The notes beneath the pieces are model-generated. The model was not told the origin of the DNA and searched no databases. It worked only from the letters and a program-made list of their open reading frames with translations. Shown piece by piece: positions 2,475 to 19,525 of a stretch of 27,723 nt of DNA; the stretch's first letter is position 1; each line of letters starts with the position of its first letter. The stretch is taken from the NCBI GenBank assembly GCA_031367385.1, contig JANLPS010000260.1:1-27723 (forward strand), given 5' to 3'. The stretch is from Archangium sp. GTDB taxonomy: Bacteria; Myxococcota; Myxococcia; Myxococcales; Myxococcaceae. Position numbers and translations under genes: made by a program.

Positions 2475-4049
2475 ATGAAACAGTTTCTCTTTGTTCTCTG
2501 TGTCGTCTCGATGTTCGGTTCGCTTGCCTGCAACAAGTCGGCTGATGGTGCCGCTGCCAGCGCGACCACGGCTGCGGTGGCGAAGAGCGCCAACGCAGTG
2601 AAGGTCGAGTTCTTCGTGATGTCGCAGTGCCCGTACGGGGTGCAGGTCGAAAACGGAGTGCAAGACGCTGTCGCCGCCCTCGGCCCCGACGTCGACTTTC
2701 ACTTCGATTTCATTGGTCAAAAGGGCGCCAACGGCGAATTGACCTCGATGCACGGCCCCAATGAGGTCACCGGCGACATCGTTCAGCTCTGCGCGGCCAA
2801 GCAGGCCCCCGGCGCGGTCGTGAAGCTGATCGGCTGCCAGAACAAGAAGAATGCCGAAGTCGCCACCAACTGGGAGGCCTGCGCGAAGGAGGTCGGCATC
2901 CCCGTCGAGCCGTTGCGTGCGTGCCTGACTGGTGAAGAAGGCAAGACCTTGTTGACCCAGTCGTTCGACCGCGCCTCGGCCCGTGGAGCGCGAGGCAGCC
3001 CGACGATGTTCATCGCCGACAAGCCGTACAACGGCCGCCGGGGCCCCAAAGACTTCATGCGCGCCATCTGCGGCGAGTTCAAAGGCGCGGTGCCCGCGGC
3101 CTGCGCGGCGTTGCCCGAGCAGCCGAAAGTCAACGTCACCGTGATCAGCGACAAGCGCTGCGCCGATTGCCAACCCGACCGCGTCGTCGGCATGGTCAAG
3201 AACCAGGTCGGCAACCCGATCGTCTCGCAGCTCGACTACGCCGATGCCGAGGGCCGCAAGCTGTACGACTCGGTGTCTCCGAATGGCGACGCGATGTTGC
3301 CGTTGGTGCTGTTCGACGACACGATCAAGGCCGACACCGACGCGCAAGCCGCGCTGGGCCGCTACCTGAAGCCGATGGGCACGATGCAGATGCTCGCGAC
3401 CGGGGCGTCGTACCAGCCTACGTGCGCCAATGAGGGCGGCTGCGGGCTGCCGCAATGCAAGAACACCCTCGCCTGCCGCAAAGACGAGCCCAAGAAGCTC
3501 GACGTGTTCGTGATGTCGCAGTGCCCGTACGGCGTTCAGGCGCTCAACGCGATGCAAGAGGTGCTGACCAACTTCGACGACATCGATTTCAACGTGAACT
3601 ACATCGGCTCGGGCGACGCGAAGTCGGGCTTTCAGTCGATGCACGGCCCGGGCGAGGTCGCTGAAGACCTCCGAGAGCTCTGCGCGATCAAGAAGTACCC
3701 GAAAAAGGCCAAGTTCATGGAGTACGTGCTCTGCCGCAACAAAGAGATTCGCTCCAATGACTGGGAGAAGTGCGCGGTCAACGGCATCGACGCCAAGGTC
3801 ATCAAGGCTTGCAGCGAAGGTGAAGAGGGCAAGAAGTACCTCGAAGAAAATATGAAGGTCGCCAACAGCATGGCCATCGGCTCGAGCCCGACCTGGCTTG
3901 CGAACAGCAAGTACAAGTTCTCAGGCATCGACGCGCAGACGATCAAGACCAACCTGTGTGCGCACAACCCGACCTTGAAGGGCTGCGACAAGACCCTCTC
4001 GGCCAACACCCAGGGCGTGCCCGCGGGCGGTTGCGGCCCGACGAAGTAA
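2475..4049 (+). CDS. Cys-rich lipoprotein with two GILT/thioredoxin-like domains
   Basis: Signal peptide ending in lipobox SLAC. Internal duplication FVMSQCPYGVQ...SMHGPxEV...LCA...GSPT/SSPT occurs twice, with a central CADC motif. Confidence 0.75.
   Translation: MKQFLFVLCVVSMFGSLACNKSADGAAASATTAAVAKSANAVKVEFFVMSQCPYGVQVENGVQDAVAALGPDVDFHFDFIGQKGANGELTSMHGPNEVTGDIVQLCAAKQAPGAVVKLIGCQNKKNAEVATNWEACAKEVGIPVEPLRACLTGEEGKTLLTQSFDRASARGARGSPTMFIADKPYNGRRGPKDFMRAICGEFKGAVPAACAALPEQPKVNVTVISDKRCADCQPDRVVGMVKNQVGNPIVSQLDYADAEGRKLYDSVSPNGDAMLPLVLFDDTIKADTDAQAALGRYLKPMGTMQMLATGASYQPTCANEGGCGLPQCKNTLACRKDEPKKLDVFVMSQCPYGVQALNAMQEVLTNFDDIDFNVNYIGSGDAKSGFQSMHGPGEVAEDLRELCAIKKYPKKAKFMEYVLCRNKEIRSNDWEKCAVNGIDAKVIKACSEGEEGKKYLEENMKVANSMAIGSSPTWLANSKYKFSGIDAQTIKTNLCAHNPTLKGCDKTLSANTQGVPAGGCGPTK
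2613..3532 (+). repeat. 26-nt exact direct repeat (2613-2638 and 3507-3532) marking the intragenic domain duplication
   Basis: ttcgtgatgtcgcagtgcccgtacgg is present at both positions and encodes FVMSQCPYG. Confidence 0.9.
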
Positions 4050-4055
4050 GAGGTT

Positions 4056-4949
4056 TTAGAGCGACGTGACCCACCGGGCGACGATTCGCCCGGCCTCGGC
4101 CAGCACCGCCTGGTCTTCATCGCGCATGTCGTCGGTGGGGGCCGCGGTCTCGAAAAACGCGGCGATGACGAGCAGTTGGCGCCCCGGGGGCCAGCCGAAG
4201 GCCAGGTCATTGTATTTGTCGTGCAGCGGCACTCCGGCGGTGCCGGTCTTGTCTCCGGCGCGCCAGTCGGCCGGCAATGAGGCGCGCAGCCGCTTCTTGC
4301 CGGTCTCGGTGGCTCTGCCCCAGTCGATCAGCAGGGCTCGAGAGGCGGGGCTGAGCACGGTCGGACCGAAGATGGCGGCCACCGACCGAGCCATCGCCGC
4401 GGGCGTGGTGGTGTCGCGCAGCTCACCGGGTGACCAGAGGTTGAGCTCGGGCTCGTAGCGGTCGACGCGGCTGGTCTCATCACCAACCGAGCGAAAAAAC
4501 TGGGTCAAGGCTTGCGGCCCGCCCAGCTGCCGCAGCAACAGGTTCGCGGCGGTGTTGTCACTCTGCGTCTGCGCCGCCTCGGCCATCGCCGAGATGGTCA
4601 TCGAGCCCTGCTCGAGGTTCTTTTCAGCCGCGGGAGCGTGCGCAACGAGGTCGGCCTTTGTGTAGGCGATGGCTTGAGTGAGCGAGAGGGCTCCCCGGTC
4701 GACTTGCTGCAGCACTGCCGCGGCCAAGGGCAGCTTGAAGGTCGAGCACATCGTGAATCGCTCGCCCATGCGATGACCGAGCAGTCGATTCGAGGCCAGA
4801 TCAAAGGCGGCCACGCCGAGCCGGCCGCCTGACGAGGCTTCAAGTTTGGCCAGGTCGCCCTGGAGGGCACCGGTTCGAGCGATGTGGGTGCAGCGGGTGA
4901 GCACGAGCGCGCTCGCGCCAGCCAAGACTGCTCGTCGAGAGGGGTTCAT
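4056..4949 (-). CDS. bla: Class A serine beta-lactamase with a Tat-type signal peptide
   Basis: STFK (SxxK), SDN, DRYEPELN (Glu166 omega loop), RDTTTP and GDKTG motifs. Start re-assigned to MNPSRRAVLAG (twin-arginine); the ORF-track extension to 5363 overlaps the neighbouring kinase. Confidence 0.93.
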   Translation of the reverse strand: MNPSRRAVLAGASALVLTRCTHIARTGALQGDLAKLEASSGGRLGVAAFDLASNRLLGHRMGERFTMCSTFKLPLAAAVLQQVDRGALSLTQAIAYTKADLVAHAPAAEKNLEQGSMTISAMAEAAQTQSDNTAANLLLRQLGGPQALTQFFRSVGDETSRVDRYEPELNLWSPGELRDTTTPAAMARSVAAIFGPTVLSPASRALLIDWGRATETGKKRLRASLPADWRAGDKTGTAGVPLHDKYNDLAFGWPPGRQLLVIAAFFETAAPTDDMRDEDQAVLAEAGRIVARWVTSL

Positions 4950-9390: not shown

Positions 9391-9810
9391 ATGATCACCT
9401 TCTCCCATGTGGGCATCGCGGTCTCGAAGGGCTCGCCGCTGCGTGCGCTGCTGGGCCTGCTCGAGGTGCCCACGCACGACACCACGGTGCCCCGCGAGAG
9501 CCTGGCGGTCACGATGGTGCCACTTGGTGCGCGATCGGCGCGGTTGGAGCTGCTCGAGACCGAGAACCCCGATTCGACCGTGGGCCGGTTCTTGGCTCGC
9601 CACGGGCCGGGCATTCACCATGTGTGTCTGGGTGTGCCGCACGGGGCGCTCGATGCGATCTGCGAGCGGCTTCGGGCGAACGGCTATCGGCTCCTGCTCG
9701 AGAAGAACGAGCTTGGTGCCGAGGGGGCCTTCGTGAATTTCGTGCACCCCAAGTCAACCGGGGGCGTGCTGCTCGAGCTCCAGGAGCAGTCGCGCGATGG
9801 CGAGCCGTGA
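9391..9810 (+). CDS. mce: Methylmalonyl-CoA epimerase (VOC family)
   Basis: HVGIAV, LELLE, FLARHGPGIHHVCL and FVHPKSTGGVLLEL signature segments. Confidence 0.88.
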   Translation: MITFSHVGIAVSKGSPLRALLGLLEVPTHDTTVPRESLAVTMVPLGARSARLELLETENPDSTVGRFLARHGPGIHHVCLGVPHGALDAICERLRANGYRLLLEKNELGAEGAFVNFVHPKSTGGVLLELQEQSRDGEP

Positions 9811-11061
9811 GCGGCCGGCATAGTCCATCACGTTGCCCAGCCCGAGCTGTTCGGCCACGAGCTGGTACGCGGCGGTGCCGATGGTCATGCCGACCTTGGC
9901 GCGAAACGCGAGGGCCTCGGTCAGCCAGCCCCTGCTCACCGCGAGCTGTCGGAGCGGCACTTTTTCGTGCGTGCCATCGAAATGAATCGCCGGGTCGAGC
10001 CGCAGCGCCGCGCGAATGACCGCGGGAGACCAAAACACGGGGTGCACCGCGACGCCGTAGCGCCAGGCGTAAAACGGGCTGAGCTCTCCGGTCCAGATCG
10101 TGCGGGCGATGAGCGCGGCGGTCGATGAGACGCCGACGGCTTGCATGTAGGCGTCGTGGCGCAGCATGCCGCCGAATAAGAGATCTGCGCCGTAGCCGGT
10201 GACCACTCCGGTGCCGGCGTGTCGCACCAGGGCCGCGAGCTGAAGCACGATCTCGGCGGTCATGCCGTCGGAGATCTCATTGGCTTTGATCACGTCGTTC
10301 CACAGCTTGAGAATTTCGTCGTCGCGCAGCTGCAGCTCGCGGTGATCACTGCCCAGCGAGCGGGCCAGGTCGGCTGCCTGGGCGAATTCATTGCCCACGC
10401 GGGTGCCCAGGCTCCAGGTGCTGAGCTTCACTGGAAATTTTCGGCCCAGCAGCGCGGAGGCGATCGACGAGTCGATGCCTCCTGAGATGAAGGCACCGCG
10501 GGTCGCATCGGCGCCGTCGAGGGAGTGCTCGAGTGCGTCTCCGAGCTCGCGGGTGTCGGTGGAGGTACCCGTCGTTGCCAAGAGCTCGGGCCAGATCGAG
10601 GGCATTTCTTCGTGAAGAACCCCGGCGTGGTCGATGGAGAGGGTGGCCCCGGGTGAGAGGCGCTCGACGTTCTCGTAGGGGGAATACGTGAGGCTTCGCT
10701 CGCCGGCCGCAGTGAGGCTCGCCGCCGGTTTCAAACGAGGTTGAAAACCGGCGATGGCGGCGAAGGCTTTCACTTCGGGGGAGACCGCGATGAAGCCTGG
10801 GCCGTTGATCTGCCACAGAGGGAGCGTGCCGAGGGCGTCAGTGGTGAAGCGCGTCGCCGCGGGGAGCAGGTCGACTCGGCCATGAGCAGAGCAGGCGGAG
10901 CGAGCGAACGAGGTTTCGAGGGTCGTTGGCTTGGTGAAGCGTGCCAGCGGCGTGTGGTAGAGCGTGCCGGTCTTGGTGACGGTAGTGCCGTACGGGCAGA
11001 GTCTCTTGGCGAGCTCGACTTCATCGACCTCCGCCCTGCCCTGAACCCAGAGAAATGGCAT
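9754..11061 (-). CDS. carA: Carbapenam synthetase-like ATP-dependent beta-lactam synthetase (asparagine synthetase superfamily; carbapenem CarA/ThnM type)
   Basis: SGGIDSS PP-loop plus segments matching the recalled Pectobacterium CarA: SLGTRVGNEF~SIGTELSNEF, NEISDGMTAEI~NEIFDGLSAEI, TGYGADLLFGG~TGYGSDLLFGG, RTIWTGE~RTRWTGE, VFWS~PFWS, RAKVG~RKKIG. No N-terminal glutaminase Cys. The symbol refers to carbapenem carA, not carbamoyl-phosphate synthase. Confidence 0.85.
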   Translation of the reverse strand: MPFLWVQGRAEVDEVELAKRLCPYGTTVTKTGTLYHTPLARFTKPTTLETSFARSACSAHGRVDLLPAATRFTTDALGTLPLWQINGPGFIAVSPEVKAFAAIAGFQPRLKPAASLTAAGERSLTYSPYENVERLSPGATLSIDHAGVLHEEMPSIWPELLATTGTSTDTRELGDALEHSLDGADATRGAFISGGIDSSIASALLGRKFPVKLSTWSLGTRVGNEFAQAADLARSLGSDHRELQLRDDEILKLWNDVIKANEISDGMTAEIVLQLAALVRHAGTGVVTGYGADLLFGGMLRHDAYMQAVGVSSTAALIARTIWTGELSPFYAWRYGVAVHPVFWSPAVIRAALRLDPAIHFDGTHEKVPLRQLAVSRGWLTEALAFRAKVGMTIGTAAYQLVAEQLGLGNVMDYAGRSRLAIARLLLELEQHAPG

Positions 11062-11064
11062 CGG

Positions 11065-12492
11065 CTAGCGCTCCGTGAGCTTGGGCTTGAGCACTTTGCC
11101 CAGCGGGCTCTTCGGCAGCGACTCCCGAAAGTGCCAGTGCCTGGGTATTTTGAAGTCGGCCAGTTGCTCTCGCAGTACGGGCATCGCCGATTTCTTCAAC
11201 GCCGCGTCATCGAGGCCAGTCGGGCCGCGGTCGGGCACCAGGTACGCCGCCACGCACTCTCCGGTGAGCTCATCGGCTGCACCGATCACCGCGCATTCTT
11301 TGACCCACGGCAGGTTTCGCAAGGCCGTCTCGACCTCAGCTGGGTTCACCTTCTGCCCTGCGACGTTGATGAATTGATTCATTCGGCCGGTGATGAAGAA
11401 TCGACCCGCTTCATCGAGCGACACCAGGTCACCCGTTCGCAGCTCATGGTTCGCGAAGGGCGCTGCATCGACCGCTCCGTCGATGAGGTAGCCACTGCAG
11501 AGGGCCTCCGATGAAACCACCAGCTCTGCGTTGTCGAGCCGCCATCGAATGGGCGCCATCGGCTTGCCGACCGTCTCGAAAAGATACGGAGGTGCGCCAT
11601 GCTGGTGAATGCAGATCACACCAATTTCGGCCAGCCCGTACCCTTGTTGGAGTGGGCGACCGAAGCGCTCGAGAAACCCTTCGGCCACCGTTCGCGAGAG
11701 GGCCGCGCTGCCGCAAAACGGGCGCGACAACGCCGACAGGTCGTACTTTTCGGGGTGTTGCAATCGGTTACACACCGCGAAGAACGAAGGCACCGAGCTG
11801 AAAAAAGAGATTCGAGACTCGGTCAGCACGTTGAGCACGCTCATCGGCGTCGCAGCCTGGGGCGGCATCAGCCACAGCGTGCCTCCACCCAGCAGCGTGG
11901 GAAAAGCGAGACAATCGAGGCCATGCGAGTGCGTGAGCGGCACGGCACAGAGGGTGCGCTCATCGTCGGTGAGCGTCACGGCTCGTTGAATGTGCTGCGC
12001 GCGGGCCCACAGCGCCTCCGCGCCGATCAAGATCCCCTTGGGGCGGCCGGTGGTGCCTGAGCTCCATTGAATGAACGCGGTGCCCTCGATCAACGGGTGG
12101 CGAGCGTTGTAGCCCTGCCCTTTCGCGGTCACCCCGCCCACGTCATCGAGCTGCCAATGCGCCACGCCAGCGACGATCTCAGCCGCCGCCTGGGTCAGCA
12201 CCAGACTGGGGTTCAGCGCCGAGACCAGCGCGTCACGTTCACCCTTGGGGAGCATCGGGTCGAGAGGCATCACGGTGCCTCCCAGCTCGGTGACCGCGAG
12301 CACTGAGACCAGAAATGTCGGCACGTTCGTCAAGTGCAGAGCCACAGCCGAGCCTGGGCCGACCCCAGCGAGCTCACGCTTGAGTGAGTCAACCCGGGCG
12401 ATCAGCTGCGAATAGCTCAGCTCGCGATTGCCCCCCCACTTGATCGCCGCGGCGTCACCCCGTCTGGCGGCGACGTCACGAAGGCTGATCAC
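11065..12492 (-). CDS. AMP-dependent acyl-CoA/acyl-ACP ligase (ANL superfamily)
   Basis: SSGTTGRPKG, GYGLAE, RTGD, GR...INVAGQKVNPAEVE and LPKSPLGK motifs. Likely GTG start at 12492 overlapping the upstream stop (GTGA) with a GGAG RBS; the ORF track starts at 12546. Confidence 0.9.
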   Translation of the reverse strand: MISLRDVAARRGDAAAIKWGGNRELSYSQLIARVDSLKRELAGVGPGSAVALHLTNVPTFLVSVLAVTELGGTVMPLDPMLPKGERDALVSALNPSLVLTQAAAEIVAGVAHWQLDDVGGVTAKGQGYNARHPLIEGTAFIQWSSGTTGRPKGILIGAEALWARAQHIQRAVTLTDDERTLCAVPLTHSHGLDCLAFPTLLGGGTLWLMPPQAATPMSVLNVLTESRISFFSSVPSFFAVCNRLQHPEKYDLSALSRPFCGSAALSRTVAEGFLERFGRPLQQGYGLAEIGVICIHQHGAPPYLFETVGKPMAPIRWRLDNAELVVSSEALCSGYLIDGAVDAAPFANHELRTGDLVSLDEAGRFFITGRMNQFINVAGQKVNPAEVETALRNLPWVKECAVIGAADELTGECVAAYLVPDRGPTGLDDAALKKSAMPVLREQLADFKIPRHWHFRESLPKSPLGKVLKPKLTER

Positions 12493-13616
12493 AACCCCGA
12501 CTCCGGCAACCGAATGACCCAGCTGCCGACGGCCTGGTTCTGCCACATCAGCTCGTGCGCTTCGGCGGCCTGCTCGAACTCGAACGTGCGGGTGAGCGTC
12601 GACTTGATCACGCCTGAATCGATCAGCAGCTGCGCTTTGGTCGCCTCATGAATGTTGCTGCCATGCGAGCCGATGATCTGCTTCTGCAACGTCCACAAGT
12701 AGCGAACGTCGAATGACAGCTGGTACCCGGTGGTCGCTCCGCAGATGACGACTTTGCCCTGCGGCTTGGCCACATAGACACTCGCGGGAAAAGTGGCCTG
12801 CCCGGTGTGCTCGAAGACCACATCGGGGTCGCGCCCGTGGGTGAGCTCTCTGATCGCGTCGCGAAATCGCCGAAGCTCGCGCTCGTTCGCCAGGCCTTCG
12901 TTCAACGCGGGAAACTTGCGGCGATCGATGATCAGATCGGCGCCGAGGTCGTGGCAGAACGCCCGGCGTTCATCGCTCGAGACCACGCACACCGGTCGGG
13001 CGTTCGCCGCCTGGCAGAGTTGCACCGCGTAGCTGCCGAGGCCGCCCGCCGCGCCCCAGATCAGCACGACGTCTTGCGGCCCGATGCCGGTCTGCATGAA
13101 CAGCATGCGATACGCGGTGAAATACTTGAGGCTGTAGCTGGCGGCGGCCTCCCACGAGAGTGATTTGGGCTTGGGCAGCAGCTGGGTCGAGCGCAGCAAC
13201 GCGTATTCACCGAACGCGCCATAGCTGGTCTCGTAGCCCCAGGCTTTTCGCTTCACGCAATGGAGCGGATCGCCGCCATTGCACTCAGGGCACTCGCCGC
13301 ACGCCCACAAGGGGTGGGAGATCACCTCGTCGCCGACCTTCCACCGTTTGACGCCGACGCCGACCTGCTCGATGACGCCAGCGGCGTCGCTGCCACCGAT
13401 GTGAAACTGCACCGCCGGGTTGAGCTTCGAGAGCGGCACGGGTTTGCCGAGGCACGCCCAGATGTGATTGTAGTTGATGCCCGCTGCGCGCACACGAACC
13501 ACGACATCTCCGGGGCCGGCCACCGGTCGCTCGACCGTCTCGATCTGCATCGCCTGCATCGGAGGCCCGTGGCGCTCTTCTCGAACGACCCACGCCTTCA
13601 TCATCGATGAGCTCAT
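12489..13616 (-). CDS. ccr: Crotonyl-CoA carboxylase/reductase family (enoyl-thioester carboxylase/reductase)
   Basis: ECR-specific segments GINYNHIWA, HIGGSD, ECNGGDP, WGYET, TAYRML, IWGAAGGLG, VFEH and RYLWTLQKQIIGSH. The Asn, Glu and His CO2-site residues appear retained. Confidence 0.85.
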   Translation of the reverse strand: MSSSMMKAWVVREERHGPPMQAMQIETVERPVAGPGDVVVRVRAAGINYNHIWACLGKPVPLSKLNPAVQFHIGGSDAAGVIEQVGVGVKRWKVGDEVISHPLWACGECPECNGGDPLHCVKRKAWGYETSYGAFGEYALLRSTQLLPKPKSLSWEAAASYSLKYFTAYRMLFMQTGIGPQDVVLIWGAAGGLGSYAVQLCQAANARPVCVVSSDERRAFCHDLGADLIIDRRKFPALNEGLANERELRRFRDAIRELTHGRDPDVVFEHTGQATFPASVYVAKPQGKVVICGATTGYQLSFDVRYLWTLQKQIIGSHGSNIHEATKAQLLIDSGVIKSTLTRTFEFEQAAEAHELMWQNQAVGSWVIRLPESGL

Positions 13617-14794
13617 GGAGCACCTTTTACAAAGCTCGCCGGGATTCGCGTCAACCCACCGCGAGAAGCGGCGAGAATTTGATCGAACTCAGCGGGCACG
13701 TGGTGAATCAAGTTGGGGTTCAACACATGCGACCCGGAGGGGATGGCCTCGCCAGGGCTGAAGAGCAGCCCCGCGCCAATGAAGCAGGTGTCGCCGACGC
13801 CGCTGGCCAAGAAGCGCTGGTTCGACGAGACGGTGCCGGTGGGTAAGCGCAGCTCGACGTCACGGTTGGCGTTGAGGTAGTCGGCGAACCCCGCGCCCCC
13901 GCCGATGAACGTGTCGTTGCCGATGACCGCGTTGAAGATCATCTGCGTCGCGACCACCGTGCCCGCCCCGATGGCGGCGTTGGCGACCTCGCAGCGCATC
14001 AGGTAGCTGCCAGGCCCGATCACGGCGGCCTGCACGCTGCTGCCTTCGCGAATGACAGCGCCGCTGCCGATGATGGCCCCGCGCATGTAGACGTGTGCGC
14101 CGACCTCGACGTCGTCGCCGAGTACGCAGCCCTCGAGCACCGCGGTGGGGTGCACCCTGCAGCGGCGGCCCGTTCGATTGAACAACCCGGTCAGTCGCGG
14201 CGATGAGAGGGCCCACCGCAGCACTGGCACGGGCAGAAAATGGGCAAAGAAAACATAGAGCTTCGCACCGAGCTCCCTCGCGACGAGCGTCGATGCGTTG
14301 AGCACGTCGGGCCACCGTTCAATCGCCACCGCGAACTCGTGCAGCGCCGCGACCCGCACGTTGCGCAGCCCAAATACCGCTGAGGGAAAGCCCACTGGCA
14401 GCTCGAACAGTGGCGCGATCGGCAATTGCTCGAGCGTGCCTTGGCCGAACCGTGAGCCGAAGACCCAGACCGGCAGGGCCTGAACCCGCTCCGTCAGCCC
14501 GTCGGCACGCACGGTGTGCATCGCAGTGGTGTCGACCGAATACTGCACCGTGCCTTGCCCCTGTCTTCGCGCATGCGAGGCCAGCCGCTTCACCGTCGCG
14601 TCAGCAAGCACGACGTTGTCGTGAACGACGACCCCCGGGCCCTCGTTCGCGGGGCCTTCGATGACCTCGAACCCGGCTTGCGTGAGTTGCCGACGAAGCC
14701 GAGCACCCACCGTTTCGTCGCCCAGCAGAAAGGTCGACGCTGCCCTCCGAAAGGGAAACACCGGTGCGGCCTCGGAGACGACGTACGCTTTCAC
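13613..14794 (-). CDS. Left-handed beta-helix (hexapeptide repeat) protein, putative acyltransferase
   Basis: C-terminal hexapeptide repeats (VHPTAV LEGCVLGDDVEVGAHVYM RGAIIGSGAVIREGSSV QAAVIGPG...VGDTCFIGAG). The N-terminal half is not confidently assigned. 4-nt overlaps with both neighbours. Confidence 0.7.
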   Translation of the reverse strand: MKAYVVSEAAPVFPFRRAASTFLLGDETVGARLRRQLTQAGFEVIEGPANEGPGVVVHDNVVLADATVKRLASHARRQGQGTVQYSVDTTAMHTVRADGLTERVQALPVWVFGSRFGQGTLEQLPIAPLFELPVGFPSAVFGLRNVRVAALHEFAVAIERWPDVLNASTLVARELGAKLYVFFAHFLPVPVLRWALSSPRLTGLFNRTGRRCRVHPTAVLEGCVLGDDVEVGAHVYMRGAIIGSGAVIREGSSVQAAVIGPGSYLMRCEVANAAIGAGTVVATQMIFNAVIGNDTFIGGGAGFADYLNANRDVELRLPTGTVSSNQRFLASGVGDTCFIGAGLLFSPGEAIPSGSHVLNPNLIHHVPAEFDQILAASRGGLTRIPASFVKGAP

Positions 14795-15030
14795 GGCCGC
14801 GCTCCGACGTGCTTGGCGATGTCTGCGACGGTCACGAAGGGCTCGCCCTGGTTCGCGAGCTGCCCCAGGTCGACGCCGAACGACTCGTGCACCAGCACCG
14901 CGAGCTCCATCAAGCGAAACGAATCGAGCTCGAGGTCATCGCGCAGCGAATCGCTGGGGGTGATGGCCCTTGCCTGCCCACTCACCCGCTTCAGGAGCGC
15001 CTCGAGTGCCGACCAAGACCCCTCACCCAT
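14791..15030 (-). CDS. Acyl carrier protein
   Basis: 79 aa with DDLELDSFRLMEL phosphopantetheinylation motif and FGVDL...TVADI tail. Overlaps both neighbours. Confidence 0.88.
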   Translation of the reverse strand: MGEGSWSALEALLKRVSGQARAITPSDSLRDDLELDSFRLMELAVLVHESFGVDLGQLANQGEPFVTVADIAKHVGARP

Positions 15031-15784
15031 CGAGAGGACCGATCACCTTCTCGAAGTGCGGCACGTTGGCCCTGGCCGAGAACGATTGCACGTGGGCCTC
15101 GGCGGCGGGCTCTCGAATCGCGTCGAGCTGCGCGATGAAGCGCGCGTTGTGAATGTGCTTGGTCAATGAAAACGGAGTCGCGTGAAACCCGGCGAAGCGT
15201 TTGGCCTGCTTCAATGCCGTCGCGAAGACCTCGTTGTCGACTTGATCGACCAGCCCGAAGTCTTTGGCGCTCTCGGCATCGAAGCTGGCGCACCCCACCA
15301 CTGCGTGCATCATGCGCGCTCGCCCCAGCAGCACTTCGAGCATCAGCGACCCGAGTGGGCAGGCAACGCCGTTCTGCAATTCGGGCATCGCGACCACCGT
15401 GCCCCCACTGGCGACCCGCCAATCGGCGCACAACGCGACTTGCAGGCCCTGGCCTATCGCGTGGTGATCGATCGCCGCGACGACCGGTTTGTCGATGCGC
15501 AAGATCGCGATGTACAGATCGATGATCTCGAGCAAGTAGGCCCGCATCTCGCTGTGGGTCTTGAGTGCGGCGATGTCGCGAAAATCTCCGCCGACGCTGA
15601 AAGATCGATCTGCACCGCCCCACAGCACCACGGCCTTGACCGCCGCGTCGGCATTGAGCTCGGGCGCGAGCGTGATCAACCGCTGGGTCATCGCCCGCGA
15701 GAACGGGTTCTTCGGGTTCTCATGGCTCAGACGAAGCTCGCAGATGCCGTCTTCGACCCGAGCCTGAATACTGCCGTCACCCAT
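15023..15784 (-). CDS. carB: Carboxymethylproline synthase-like crotonase (carbapenem CarB/ThnE type)
   Basis: 253 aa from the ATG at 15784, co-linear with recalled CarB: NPFSR, GGADRSFSVGGDF~GGAERSFSAGGDF, IDLY, MPELQNGVAC~MPELKHGIGC (catalytic Glu131), EAHVQSF~AVHKAAF, HFEKVIG~HFKNVLG. The symbol refers to carbapenem carB. Confidence 0.85.
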   Translation of the reverse strand: MGDGSIQARVEDGICELRLSHENPKNPFSRAMTQRLITLAPELNADAAVKAVVLWGGADRSFSVGGDFRDIAALKTHSEMRAYLLEIIDLYIAILRIDKPVVAAIDHHAIGQGLQVALCADWRVASGGTVVAMPELQNGVACPLGSLMLEVLLGRARMMHAVVGCASFDAESAKDFGLVDQVDNEVFATALKQAKRFAGFHATPFSLTKHIHNARFIAQLDAIREPAAEAHVQSFSARANVPHFEKVIGPLDG

Positions 15785-19213: not shown

Positions 19214-19525
19214 GTGGGCTTTTACATCTACATTCTTCGATGCGCCGACGGCTCCTTCTACGTCGGTCACACGCGAAACCTCGAGCACCGCGTTTGGCGA
19301 CATCAATCGGGTCAGTTCGGCGGCTACACGGCGACGCGCCTGCCGGTCGAGCTGGTGTTCTGCGAAGAAATGATGAGTGTCAAAGAGGCGTTCGAGCGCG
19401 AAGTTCAAATCAAACGCTGGAGCCGAGCGAAGAAGCTTGCCCTCATCGCGCGGGACTGGGCCTTGCTGTCGAGGCTCGCGCGAAACCGCAGTGACCAAGG
19501 GCGTGGTTCGACAGGCTCACCATGA
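19214..19525 (+). CDS. Small GIY-YIG nuclease (UPF0213/YhbQ-like)
   Basis: YIYILRCADGSFYVGHT, RVWRH and AFEREVQIKRWSRAKKLALI. Confidence 0.9.
   Translation: MGFYIYILRCADGSFYVGHTRNLEHRVWRHQSGQFGGYTATRLPVELVFCEEMMSVKEAFEREVQIKRWSRAKKLALIARDWALLSRLARNRSDQGRGSTGSP

Follow-up and report, generated by a model that had tools for sequence, protein, structure and literature searches.

Gene content of the locus and the pocket of its Ccr

The 27,723-nucleotide stretch of Archangium sp. contig JANLPS010000260.1 (assembly GCA_031367385.1; the whole stretch is referred to as the window) carries a compact minus-strand operon, six genes in 6 kb, that encodes, in order, homologs of a carboxymethylproline synthase (CarB), an acyl carrier protein (ACP), a hexapeptide protein with a left-handed beta-helix (LbH), the enzyme Ccr (crotonyl-CoA carboxylase/reductase), an acyl ligase, and a carbapenam synthetase (CarA). 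Across its five junctions, neighbouring genes overlap by 4-8 nt or are parted by 3 nt. The conserved Ccr-CarB-CarA cassette is the interesting part of this locus; the Pro-Ala-Gly (P-A-G) triad in the substrate pocket of the Ccr is not surprising alone, because it is a natural signature already known from CinF, some plasmid-borne Ccrs, and some representatives of Ccr-like protein clusters.

The product of the fourth gene (12489..13616, minus strand; 375 aa) scored above the cut-off of the crotonyl-CoA carboxylase/reductase profile TIGR01751 (420.6 versus 378.55 bits), and the top Foldseek matches of its AlphaFold model are all solved enoyl-thioester carboxylases/reductases (ECRs; TMq 0.84-0.91). 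Judged from profile and fold, it is a canonical TIGR01751 member. A first-pass annotation, made from the letters of the sequence, had read Pro, Ala, and Gly at three pocket positions of this enzyme, and the codons are indeed Pro102 (CCC, 13311..13313), Ala125 (GCC, 13242..13244), and Gly319 (GGC, 12660..12662), all on the minus strand, with the first two residues 23 positions apart. Counted along HMMER alignments to the primary-metabolism Ccr 4GI2 and to CinF (4A0S), these residues fall on the triad sites, as the annotation had supposed. The Cys/Ile/Phe (CIF) set that it gave for primary metabolism is found in 4GI2 (C130/I153/F358) and in Caulobacter Ccr (C146/I169/F373), and the small residues that it ascribed to long-chain ECRs are those of the 2-octenoyl-CoA carboxylase/reductase CinF, whose P141/A163/G362 (in the motifs HP-AHV, RAWGFET, and GSHGAN) are identical to the window triad. 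Its view of them as enlarged-pocket residues agrees with the Caulobacter triple variant C146P/I169A/F373G, made to give large substrates an open active site (PMC8360864).

The residues for carboxylation are retained as well. N50/Y128/E129/H318 align with the CO2 site N81/F170/E171/H365 of the K. setae ECR (KsCcr), in which Tyr is tolerated in place of Phe (PMC6628652), and Asn/Phe(Tyr)/Glu/His occur in 119 of 121 aligned Ccr proteins; CinF and the engineered Caulobacter enzyme share the same CO2-binding residues. The residues that contact the adenine and phosphate of CoA, K296/R303/Y328 and R352/Y353, have their counterparts in R249/R256/Y281 and R305/Y306 (roles after PMC6628652 and PMC9413435); because these contacts are kept, a CoA substrate is still plausible. 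By the aligned residues, the carboxylation machinery is intact. An aromatic specificity of the AntE type is not favoured, because position 163 is Leu where AntE has an Ala whose role in that enzyme we take as an assumption.

Origin of the triad and the Cys4 motif

The distribution of the triad was surveyed in 121 aligned proteins (the window Ccr and its 120 best listed homologs). The P-A-G clade has 51 members (PAG in 49, PAA in 1, PAF in 1), and the next-nearest homologs are CIF in 69 of 69; one divergent Met-Ala-Gly protein was counted with neither. Since the clade and its neighbours differ so consistently, the triad is not a chance occurrence. P-A-G also recurs in 3 of 12 plasmid-borne Ccrs and in 3 of the 24 ECR-like cluster representatives (150 listed) for which all positions were covered. 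In a quick tree, in which three plasmid-borne P-A-G Ccrs stood in for CinF, itself absent from the tree, the window clade (SH-aLRT 100) lies among CIF enzymes that share a Cys4 motif, far from the actinobacterial P-A-G enzymes. With the triad columns dropped, an approximately unbiased (AU) test on 31 of 55 rows, carried out with the first tree already in view and with the long-branch row P0069 omitted, rejected a single P-A-G clade (p 3e-10). Common descent of the window Ccr with the actinobacterial P-A-G ECRs is thus not what tree and test found, and because of both results the pocket is likely to have arisen independently, so that a long-chain P-A-G pocket would have appeared twice in ECR evolution. 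The notions that the triad is unique, or that it was inherited from CinF-like enzymes, were both rejected, the first by its recurrence elsewhere and the second by the tree and the AU test.

The Cys4 motif itself (Cys106/109/112/120; 13257..13301, minus strand), a putative structural-zinc site, had been singled out by the first-pass annotation as something that canonical Ccrs lack. It is present, and it is absent from the solved Ccrs and ECRs aligned here, but it does not set this enzyme apart: all 121 aligned proteins have it, 69 CIF enzymes among them, as do 24 of the 25 Ccr loci that the phylum search returned outside the cassette. The candidate was therefore rejected as a special feature, and the putative zinc site is an ancestral trait of this Ccr lineage and not specific to the cassette. 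Model confidence is low around it (pLDDT 48-57, residues 101-130). The homologs P0051-P0121 and the loci L091-L114 and L165-L180 make up a large CIF lineage with an ADH-type Cys4 motif, which may represent an ancestral zinc-binding state of ECRs.

Carbapenam-type partners and conservation of the cassette

The first gene of the operon (15023..15784, minus strand) encodes a carboxymethylproline synthase of the CarB/ThnE type, with best PDB matches to 5O34 (ThnE-type, E 1e-49) and CarB (E 4e-46). The catalytic residues E135 (= E131 of CarB) and H231 (= H229) are kept, the Glu in all 124 aligned rows, and two residues are exchanged, W79 for Y83 and M108 for Q112. Among 120 CarB homologs the position of W79 is Tyr in 106 and that of M108 is Gln in 117; in all 11 other cassettes the former is Tyr. 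Engineered CarB variants W79F/A/Y/S accept ethylmalonyl-CoA, and W79A accepts larger chains (PMC6542682).

The last gene (9754..11061, minus strand) encodes a carbapenam synthetase whose best PDB match is CarA (E 9e-34). It has the SGGIDSS loop and keeps Y290/E326/K389 (= CarA Y345/E380/K443), residues that we take to be catalytic, a role for which a literature search turned up no source; the motif residues are retained in 10 of 10 aligned homologs. Convergent with this gene and overlapping its 3' end is a methylmalonyl-CoA-epimerase-like gene (9391..9810, plus strand; TIGR03081, 90.7 bits, below the cut-off of 114.95), a variable accessory part that is found in 4 clusters, the window included.

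The cassette was also found in 11 other genomes or contigs (G390, G401, G508, G510, G525, G533, G534, G535, G778, and the metagenome contigs L002 and L004), some of its copies being clipped by contig ends and that of G525 split over contigs. The order carB-acp-lbh-ccr is retained in loci L002, L004, L079, L086, L123, L125, L127, L128, L129, and L134, and the ligase gene comes next after ccr in all of these except L127, which ends in ccr. The operon lies near guaA/guaB in the window, and G390 and L002 have it at the same site. The cassette is rare: it occurs in 2 of 401 genomes of the phylum sample, and a CarB-like gene in 5/401 genomes (class of G401). Of the 147 genomes in the order of G401, one and the same set of 7 carries the genes for the CarB-like protein, the hexapeptide protein (counted at E<1e-150, with two weaker matches in other genomes), the P-A-G Ccr, and the CarA-like protein; triads at this level were read for the best 30 Ccr loci, 115 genomes having a Ccr, and in G510 the position of G319 is cut off. 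Some phylum-search tallies and one Ccr row rest on the unpublished genomes G196, G438, and G439, on which no conclusion depends.

These patterns bear on whether the Ccr is functionally tied to its neighbours. If it were a mere bystander to carB and carA, working as the housekeeping Ccr of the ethylmalonyl pathway or as a plain enoyl reductase, its descent from the housekeeping Cys4/CIF lineage and its epimerase-like neighbour, which housekeeping Ccr loci have too, would be accounted for. We regard this as highly improbable in view of the overlapping frames, a gene order that is fixed across 12 genomes or contigs, the exact 7/147 co-occurrence, and the intact CO2 site; moreover, no P-A-G/Cys4 enzyme with adequate flanks was seen outside the cassette among the loci inspected.

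A proposed route to 6-alkyl carbapenams

The reading that we favour, and hold to be somewhat probable from the residues and gene context, is that the Ccr makes a medium-chain alkylmalonyl thioester that CarB and CarA convert into a 6-alkyl carbapenam, the side chain thus entering first and not by late radical-SAM methylation. The ligase (11065..12492, minus strand), an adenylate-forming AMP-binding enzyme with generic PDB and Atlas matches, would activate a medium-chain acid onto CoA or onto the dedicated ACP, and the 2-enoyl form could be supplied by host beta-oxidation or fatty-acid enzymes, as for the RevS/RevT pair. With NADPH and CO2, the Ccr would then form a (2S)-alkylmalonyl thioester, any chain beyond C4-C5 being housed in the space opened by P102, A125, and G319. 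The W79Y/M108Q CarB homolog would decarboxylate this unit and add it to pyrroline-5-carboxylate, as engineered CarB W79 variants lead one to expect, giving a 6-alkyl-trans-carboxymethylproline; in clusters that have a neighbouring epimerase, this enzyme could fix the C6 stereochemistry. The CarA homolog would close the beta-lactam to a 6-alkyl carbapenam, and in the six sister clusters that carry CarC the product would be a 6-alkyl carbapenem. Because no CarC was found in its genome, the product of the window would remain a carbapenam.

The first-pass annotation had gone further in predicting butyl- or hexyl-type units. The triad, being identical to that of CinF, permits them but does not fix them, since broad-pocket ECRs also carboxylate C4 and C5 substrates (PMC8252502); chain length would therefore depend on supply. 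Its lipophilic C6-alkyl product gains a destination from the adjoining carB- and carA-like genes, but its chain length is left equally unfixed by the triad.

Several further observations weigh against the proposal. In the Ccr, a Lys (K164) lies near the active site in 51 of 51 members of the P-A-G clade, the second-shell Thr82 position is His or Gln (H51 in the window enzyme), and the four-member subclade of the window also has L103/W104, R123 (= Q165), and P285 (= K332). Trp79 is retained by 11 of the 120 CarB homologs, the contexts of which were not seen. Tyr at CarB position 79 is reported for ethylmalonyl-CoA only, long chains having needed W79A, and the only C6 groups shown to be converted by CarA are methyl, ethyl, and methoxy, as far as the available text of that study goes (PMC6542682). 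The CarA homolog, with its reduced N-terminal domain, falls about 70 residues short of CarA in length, the ligase matched no curated family, and there is no enoyl-forming dehydrogenase among the cassette genes. The genome of the window (G000, 98% complete) returned no match to CarC and no second Ccr-level match, and the turnover of C4/C5 enoyl-CoAs by broad-pocket ECRs noted above counts here too. CarC was likewise not found in G390 (87% complete).

Part of this evidence would suit a short-chain route, in which the Ccr makes mostly ethyl- or propylmalonyl-CoA, the wide pocket is incidental, and early incorporation yields a 6-ethyl carbapenam or carbapenem with a PS-5-type side chain. W79Y CarB takes ethylmalonyl-CoA and CarA converts (6R)-6-ethyl-trans-carboxymethylproline at 75% (PMC6542682), broad ECRs still use C4/C5, and the window genome yielded no other Ccr-level match. 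Nevertheless, three pocket changes were fixed in the clade after its split from CIF ancestors, and several clusters have desaturase and lipid-type export genes. In addition, 6 of the 7 cassette genomes have a second, separate Ccr, with an I/F pocket in the four that were checked; because this Ccr is kept, ethylmalonyl-CoA is probably already available in those genomes. On balance, the short-chain route seems quite unlikely. The four checked I/F paralogs of cassette genomes all sit behind a regulator gene of apparent ScfR/RamB type, which in one case was typed as ScfR-like. Loci L183-L188, L191, L192, and L194 hold what are probably the housekeeping Ccrs of the G401 order, and these have Gly in place of Cys at the first of the pocket positions (GIF).

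The ACP (14791..15030, minus strand) is free-standing, with Ser37 in an LDSF motif and a match to PF00550 (E 1.4e-6). The hexapeptide protein (13613..14794, minus strand; Hexapep Pfam) combines a degenerate nucleotidyltransferase-like N-terminal domain with a left-handed beta-helix; its model has a pLDDT of 66.7 and weak fold matches (best E 1e-4, ST0452/RmlA-like), and GxGTR, presumably the nucleotidyltransferase motif, was not seen in its alignment. A predicted complex of an LbH trimer with the ACP scored 0.65, versus 0.25 for the best of 3 controls, and the mark applied is attained by 116 of 157 solved pairs and 2 of 215 mismatched pairs. Contacts agree between runs to at least 93%, with a partner pLDDT of 83 or more, and ACP residues 36-49, including the Ser37 helix, lie at a subunit interface. 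The model supports binding of the ACP by the LbH protein without demonstrating it, and its score may stem from resemblance to acyltransferase-ACP complexes of the LpxA/LpxD type, for which structures have been solved. The hexapeptide protein is predicted to be an ACP-binding acyltransferase, and in the proposed route it would likely move the acyl group off the ACP, to CoA or to the product as acceptor.

The same genes can be read in another way, in which the Ccr supplies a small or functionalised (branched or polar) malonyl unit and the ligase, ACP, and LbH protein attach a separate acyl chain to the carboxymethylproline or carbapenam, or load and transfer that compound itself, the product being an acylated conjugate and possibly not a free bicyclic beta-lactam. 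The ACP, ligase, and LbH protein are core cassette genes even though CarB/CarA chemistry needs none of them, the predicted complex resembles acyl-ACP-dependent acyltransferases, a distant LbH homolog stands at a PKS/hydrolase/glycosyltransferase locus, and the invariant K164 of the Ccr and Q108 of CarB could bind a polar group. Against such a conjugate, P-A-G is a hydrophobic long-chain signature, the core cassette encodes no enzyme to make a polar enoyl precursor, and the CarA motif residues are intact in 10 of 10 homologs; we consider it unlikely. As to the ligase, it could be assigned neither to the malonate ligases of the MatB type nor to any named fatty-acyl-CoA ligase, all curated scores being far under cut-off.

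The distant LbH homolog just mentioned (L190, G543:C262, 5772-7040) adjoins a gene for a polyketide synthase (PKS)/phosphopantetheinyl transferase, an alpha/beta hydrolase, and a glycosyltransferase, and the Atlas has similar clusters in Chloroflexota. The setting suggests that hexapeptide proteins which handle acyl groups form a broader, uncharacterised family.

Sister clusters and relation to known systems

Returning to the proposed 6-alkyl route, a CarC homolog is encoded in 6 sister clusters, and the one aligned (E 2e-36) keeps the HxD motif and Tyr165. Other accessory genes of the sister clusters encode a P450, a fatty-acid desaturase (3 loci), a LolA-like protein (7), and an ABC transporter of the LolD/FtsX type; the desaturase, P450, LolA-like, and transporter genes fit a lipophilic product. 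In G535 a short P450 fragment is all that lies between carC and the ABC transporter gene (L125, 13235-13546), which suggests ongoing loss of tailoring genes there. In L079, L123, L125, and L129, the interval between the genes for the ABC permease and the CarA-like protein holds an opposite-strand DUF2505 gene, which lies just upstream of the carA-like start or overlaps it.

Two control loci with carA and carB genes, L087 and L088, have no Ccr within 16 kb, keep Trp79, and include a B12 radical-SAM gene. They come from two genomes of the window's family (G356:C6:1-16000 and G152:C6:9000-24853), where they form a beta-lactam-type cluster distinct from the cassette, and their carA-like and carB-like (W79, I108) genes are divergent. 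An aldehyde-dehydrogenase-like gene and genes for an AMP-binding protein, an ATP-grasp protein, and an EamA transporter accompany the B12 radical-SAM gene, and by gene content these loci look like a thienamycin-style late-methylation pathway in myxobacteria. No radical-SAM gene is among the operon genes of the window; the radical-SAM query from L087 matched no cassette locus and nothing in G000.

The Pectobacterium CarA/CarB/CarC pathway is the closest in its parts: CarB and CarA are among the best or near-best PDB matches, and a CarC homolog is present in sister clusters. Relative to it, the cassette adds a Ccr, an ACP, a ligase, and a hexapeptide protein, its CarB carries W79Y/M108Q, and the window genome has no CarC match. 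With the thienamycin pathway (ThnE, ThnM, ThnK) the predicted C6-substituted carbapenam scaffold is shared. Whereas in that pathway ThnK, a radical-SAM enzyme, attaches the C6 ethyl group late (PMC6097109), and natural C6 chains are likely late additions according to Hamed et al. (2019; PMC6542682), the side chain here would enter with the malonyl unit. The same authors coupled Ccr to CarB variants and closed the products with CarA (PMC6542682), so that the three enzymes, the class of W79 substitution, and the predicted chemistry are those proposed here; theirs were engineered parts in vitro, in contrast to the natural, conserved operon with ACP-linked genes described here.

As a Ccr, the window enzyme differs from CinF, which has the same triad, in its separate origin, in being about 70 residues shorter, in having Cys4, K164, and H51, and in that its gene lies by a CarB gene and not by a PKS. 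In reveromycin biosynthesis, RevS and RevT are an acyl ligase and a CCR that supply medium-chain alkylmalonyl-CoA (PMC5187497). IcuL, TgaD, and Leu10 are myxobacterial CCRs, of which IcuL is proposed to use an ACP-bound substrate; with 18% identity to CinF, it is non-canonical (bioRxiv 2022.11.22.517467), whereas the window Ccr is canonical. MatL and ActF (matlystatin, actinonin) show a CCR that feeds non-PKS chemistry together with an epimerase. None of RevS/RevT, IcuL/TgaD/Leu10, or MatL/ActF is known to supply a carboxymethylproline synthase.

No natural Ccr+CarB+CarA cluster, only the engineered cascade, was found in the openly readable literature, the coverage of which leaves out most subscription papers, and the main text of two Myxococcota biosynthetic gene cluster surveys had no occurrence of 'carbapenem', 'lactam', or 'crotonyl'. 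The triad is a convergent instance of a known signature, and the cassette is a new variation on carbapenem biosynthesis. A fuller scheme, which we put forward tentatively and with doubt slightly outweighing belief, is that of a third natural carbapenem-type route in which the Ccr and a co-adapted CarB install a fatty C6 chain before ring closure and the ACP and a hexapeptide transacylase channel that chain, giving as yet undescribed lipophilic 6-alkyl carbapenams in the window organism and, with CarC, 6-alkyl (hydroxylated or desaturated) carbapenems with Lol-like export.

To our knowledge, all clinical carbapenems bear a C6 side chain and are made by synthesis. The late addition of the C6 chain in the known natural route hampers the making of engineered analogues (PMC6542682). 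If a natural Ccr-CarB-CarA(-CarC) set has evolved for C6-alkyl substrates, it would offer ready-made enzymes for a step that engineering has tried to force, including a C6-tolerant CarA and CarC, and on this proposal little-studied myxobacteria would be the source of a family of lipophilic beta-lactams.

Other genes in the window

A promoter and terminator scan returned nothing above shuffled sequences. A class A beta-lactamase gene lies 4.8 kb from the carA-like gene (4056-4949, minus strand; NF033103, 288 bits against a cut-off of 200). Its candidacy as dedicated self-resistance was rejected, and it is not counted as part of the cassette, because no homolog was found in the 17 loci queried. 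Next to it, 2475-4049 (plus strand) encodes a probable lipoprotein of 524 aa, rich in cysteines and with two thioredoxin-like domains of the GILT/DSBA kind, and a small GIY-YIG nuclease gene (19214-19525, plus strand) lies between guaB and guaA.

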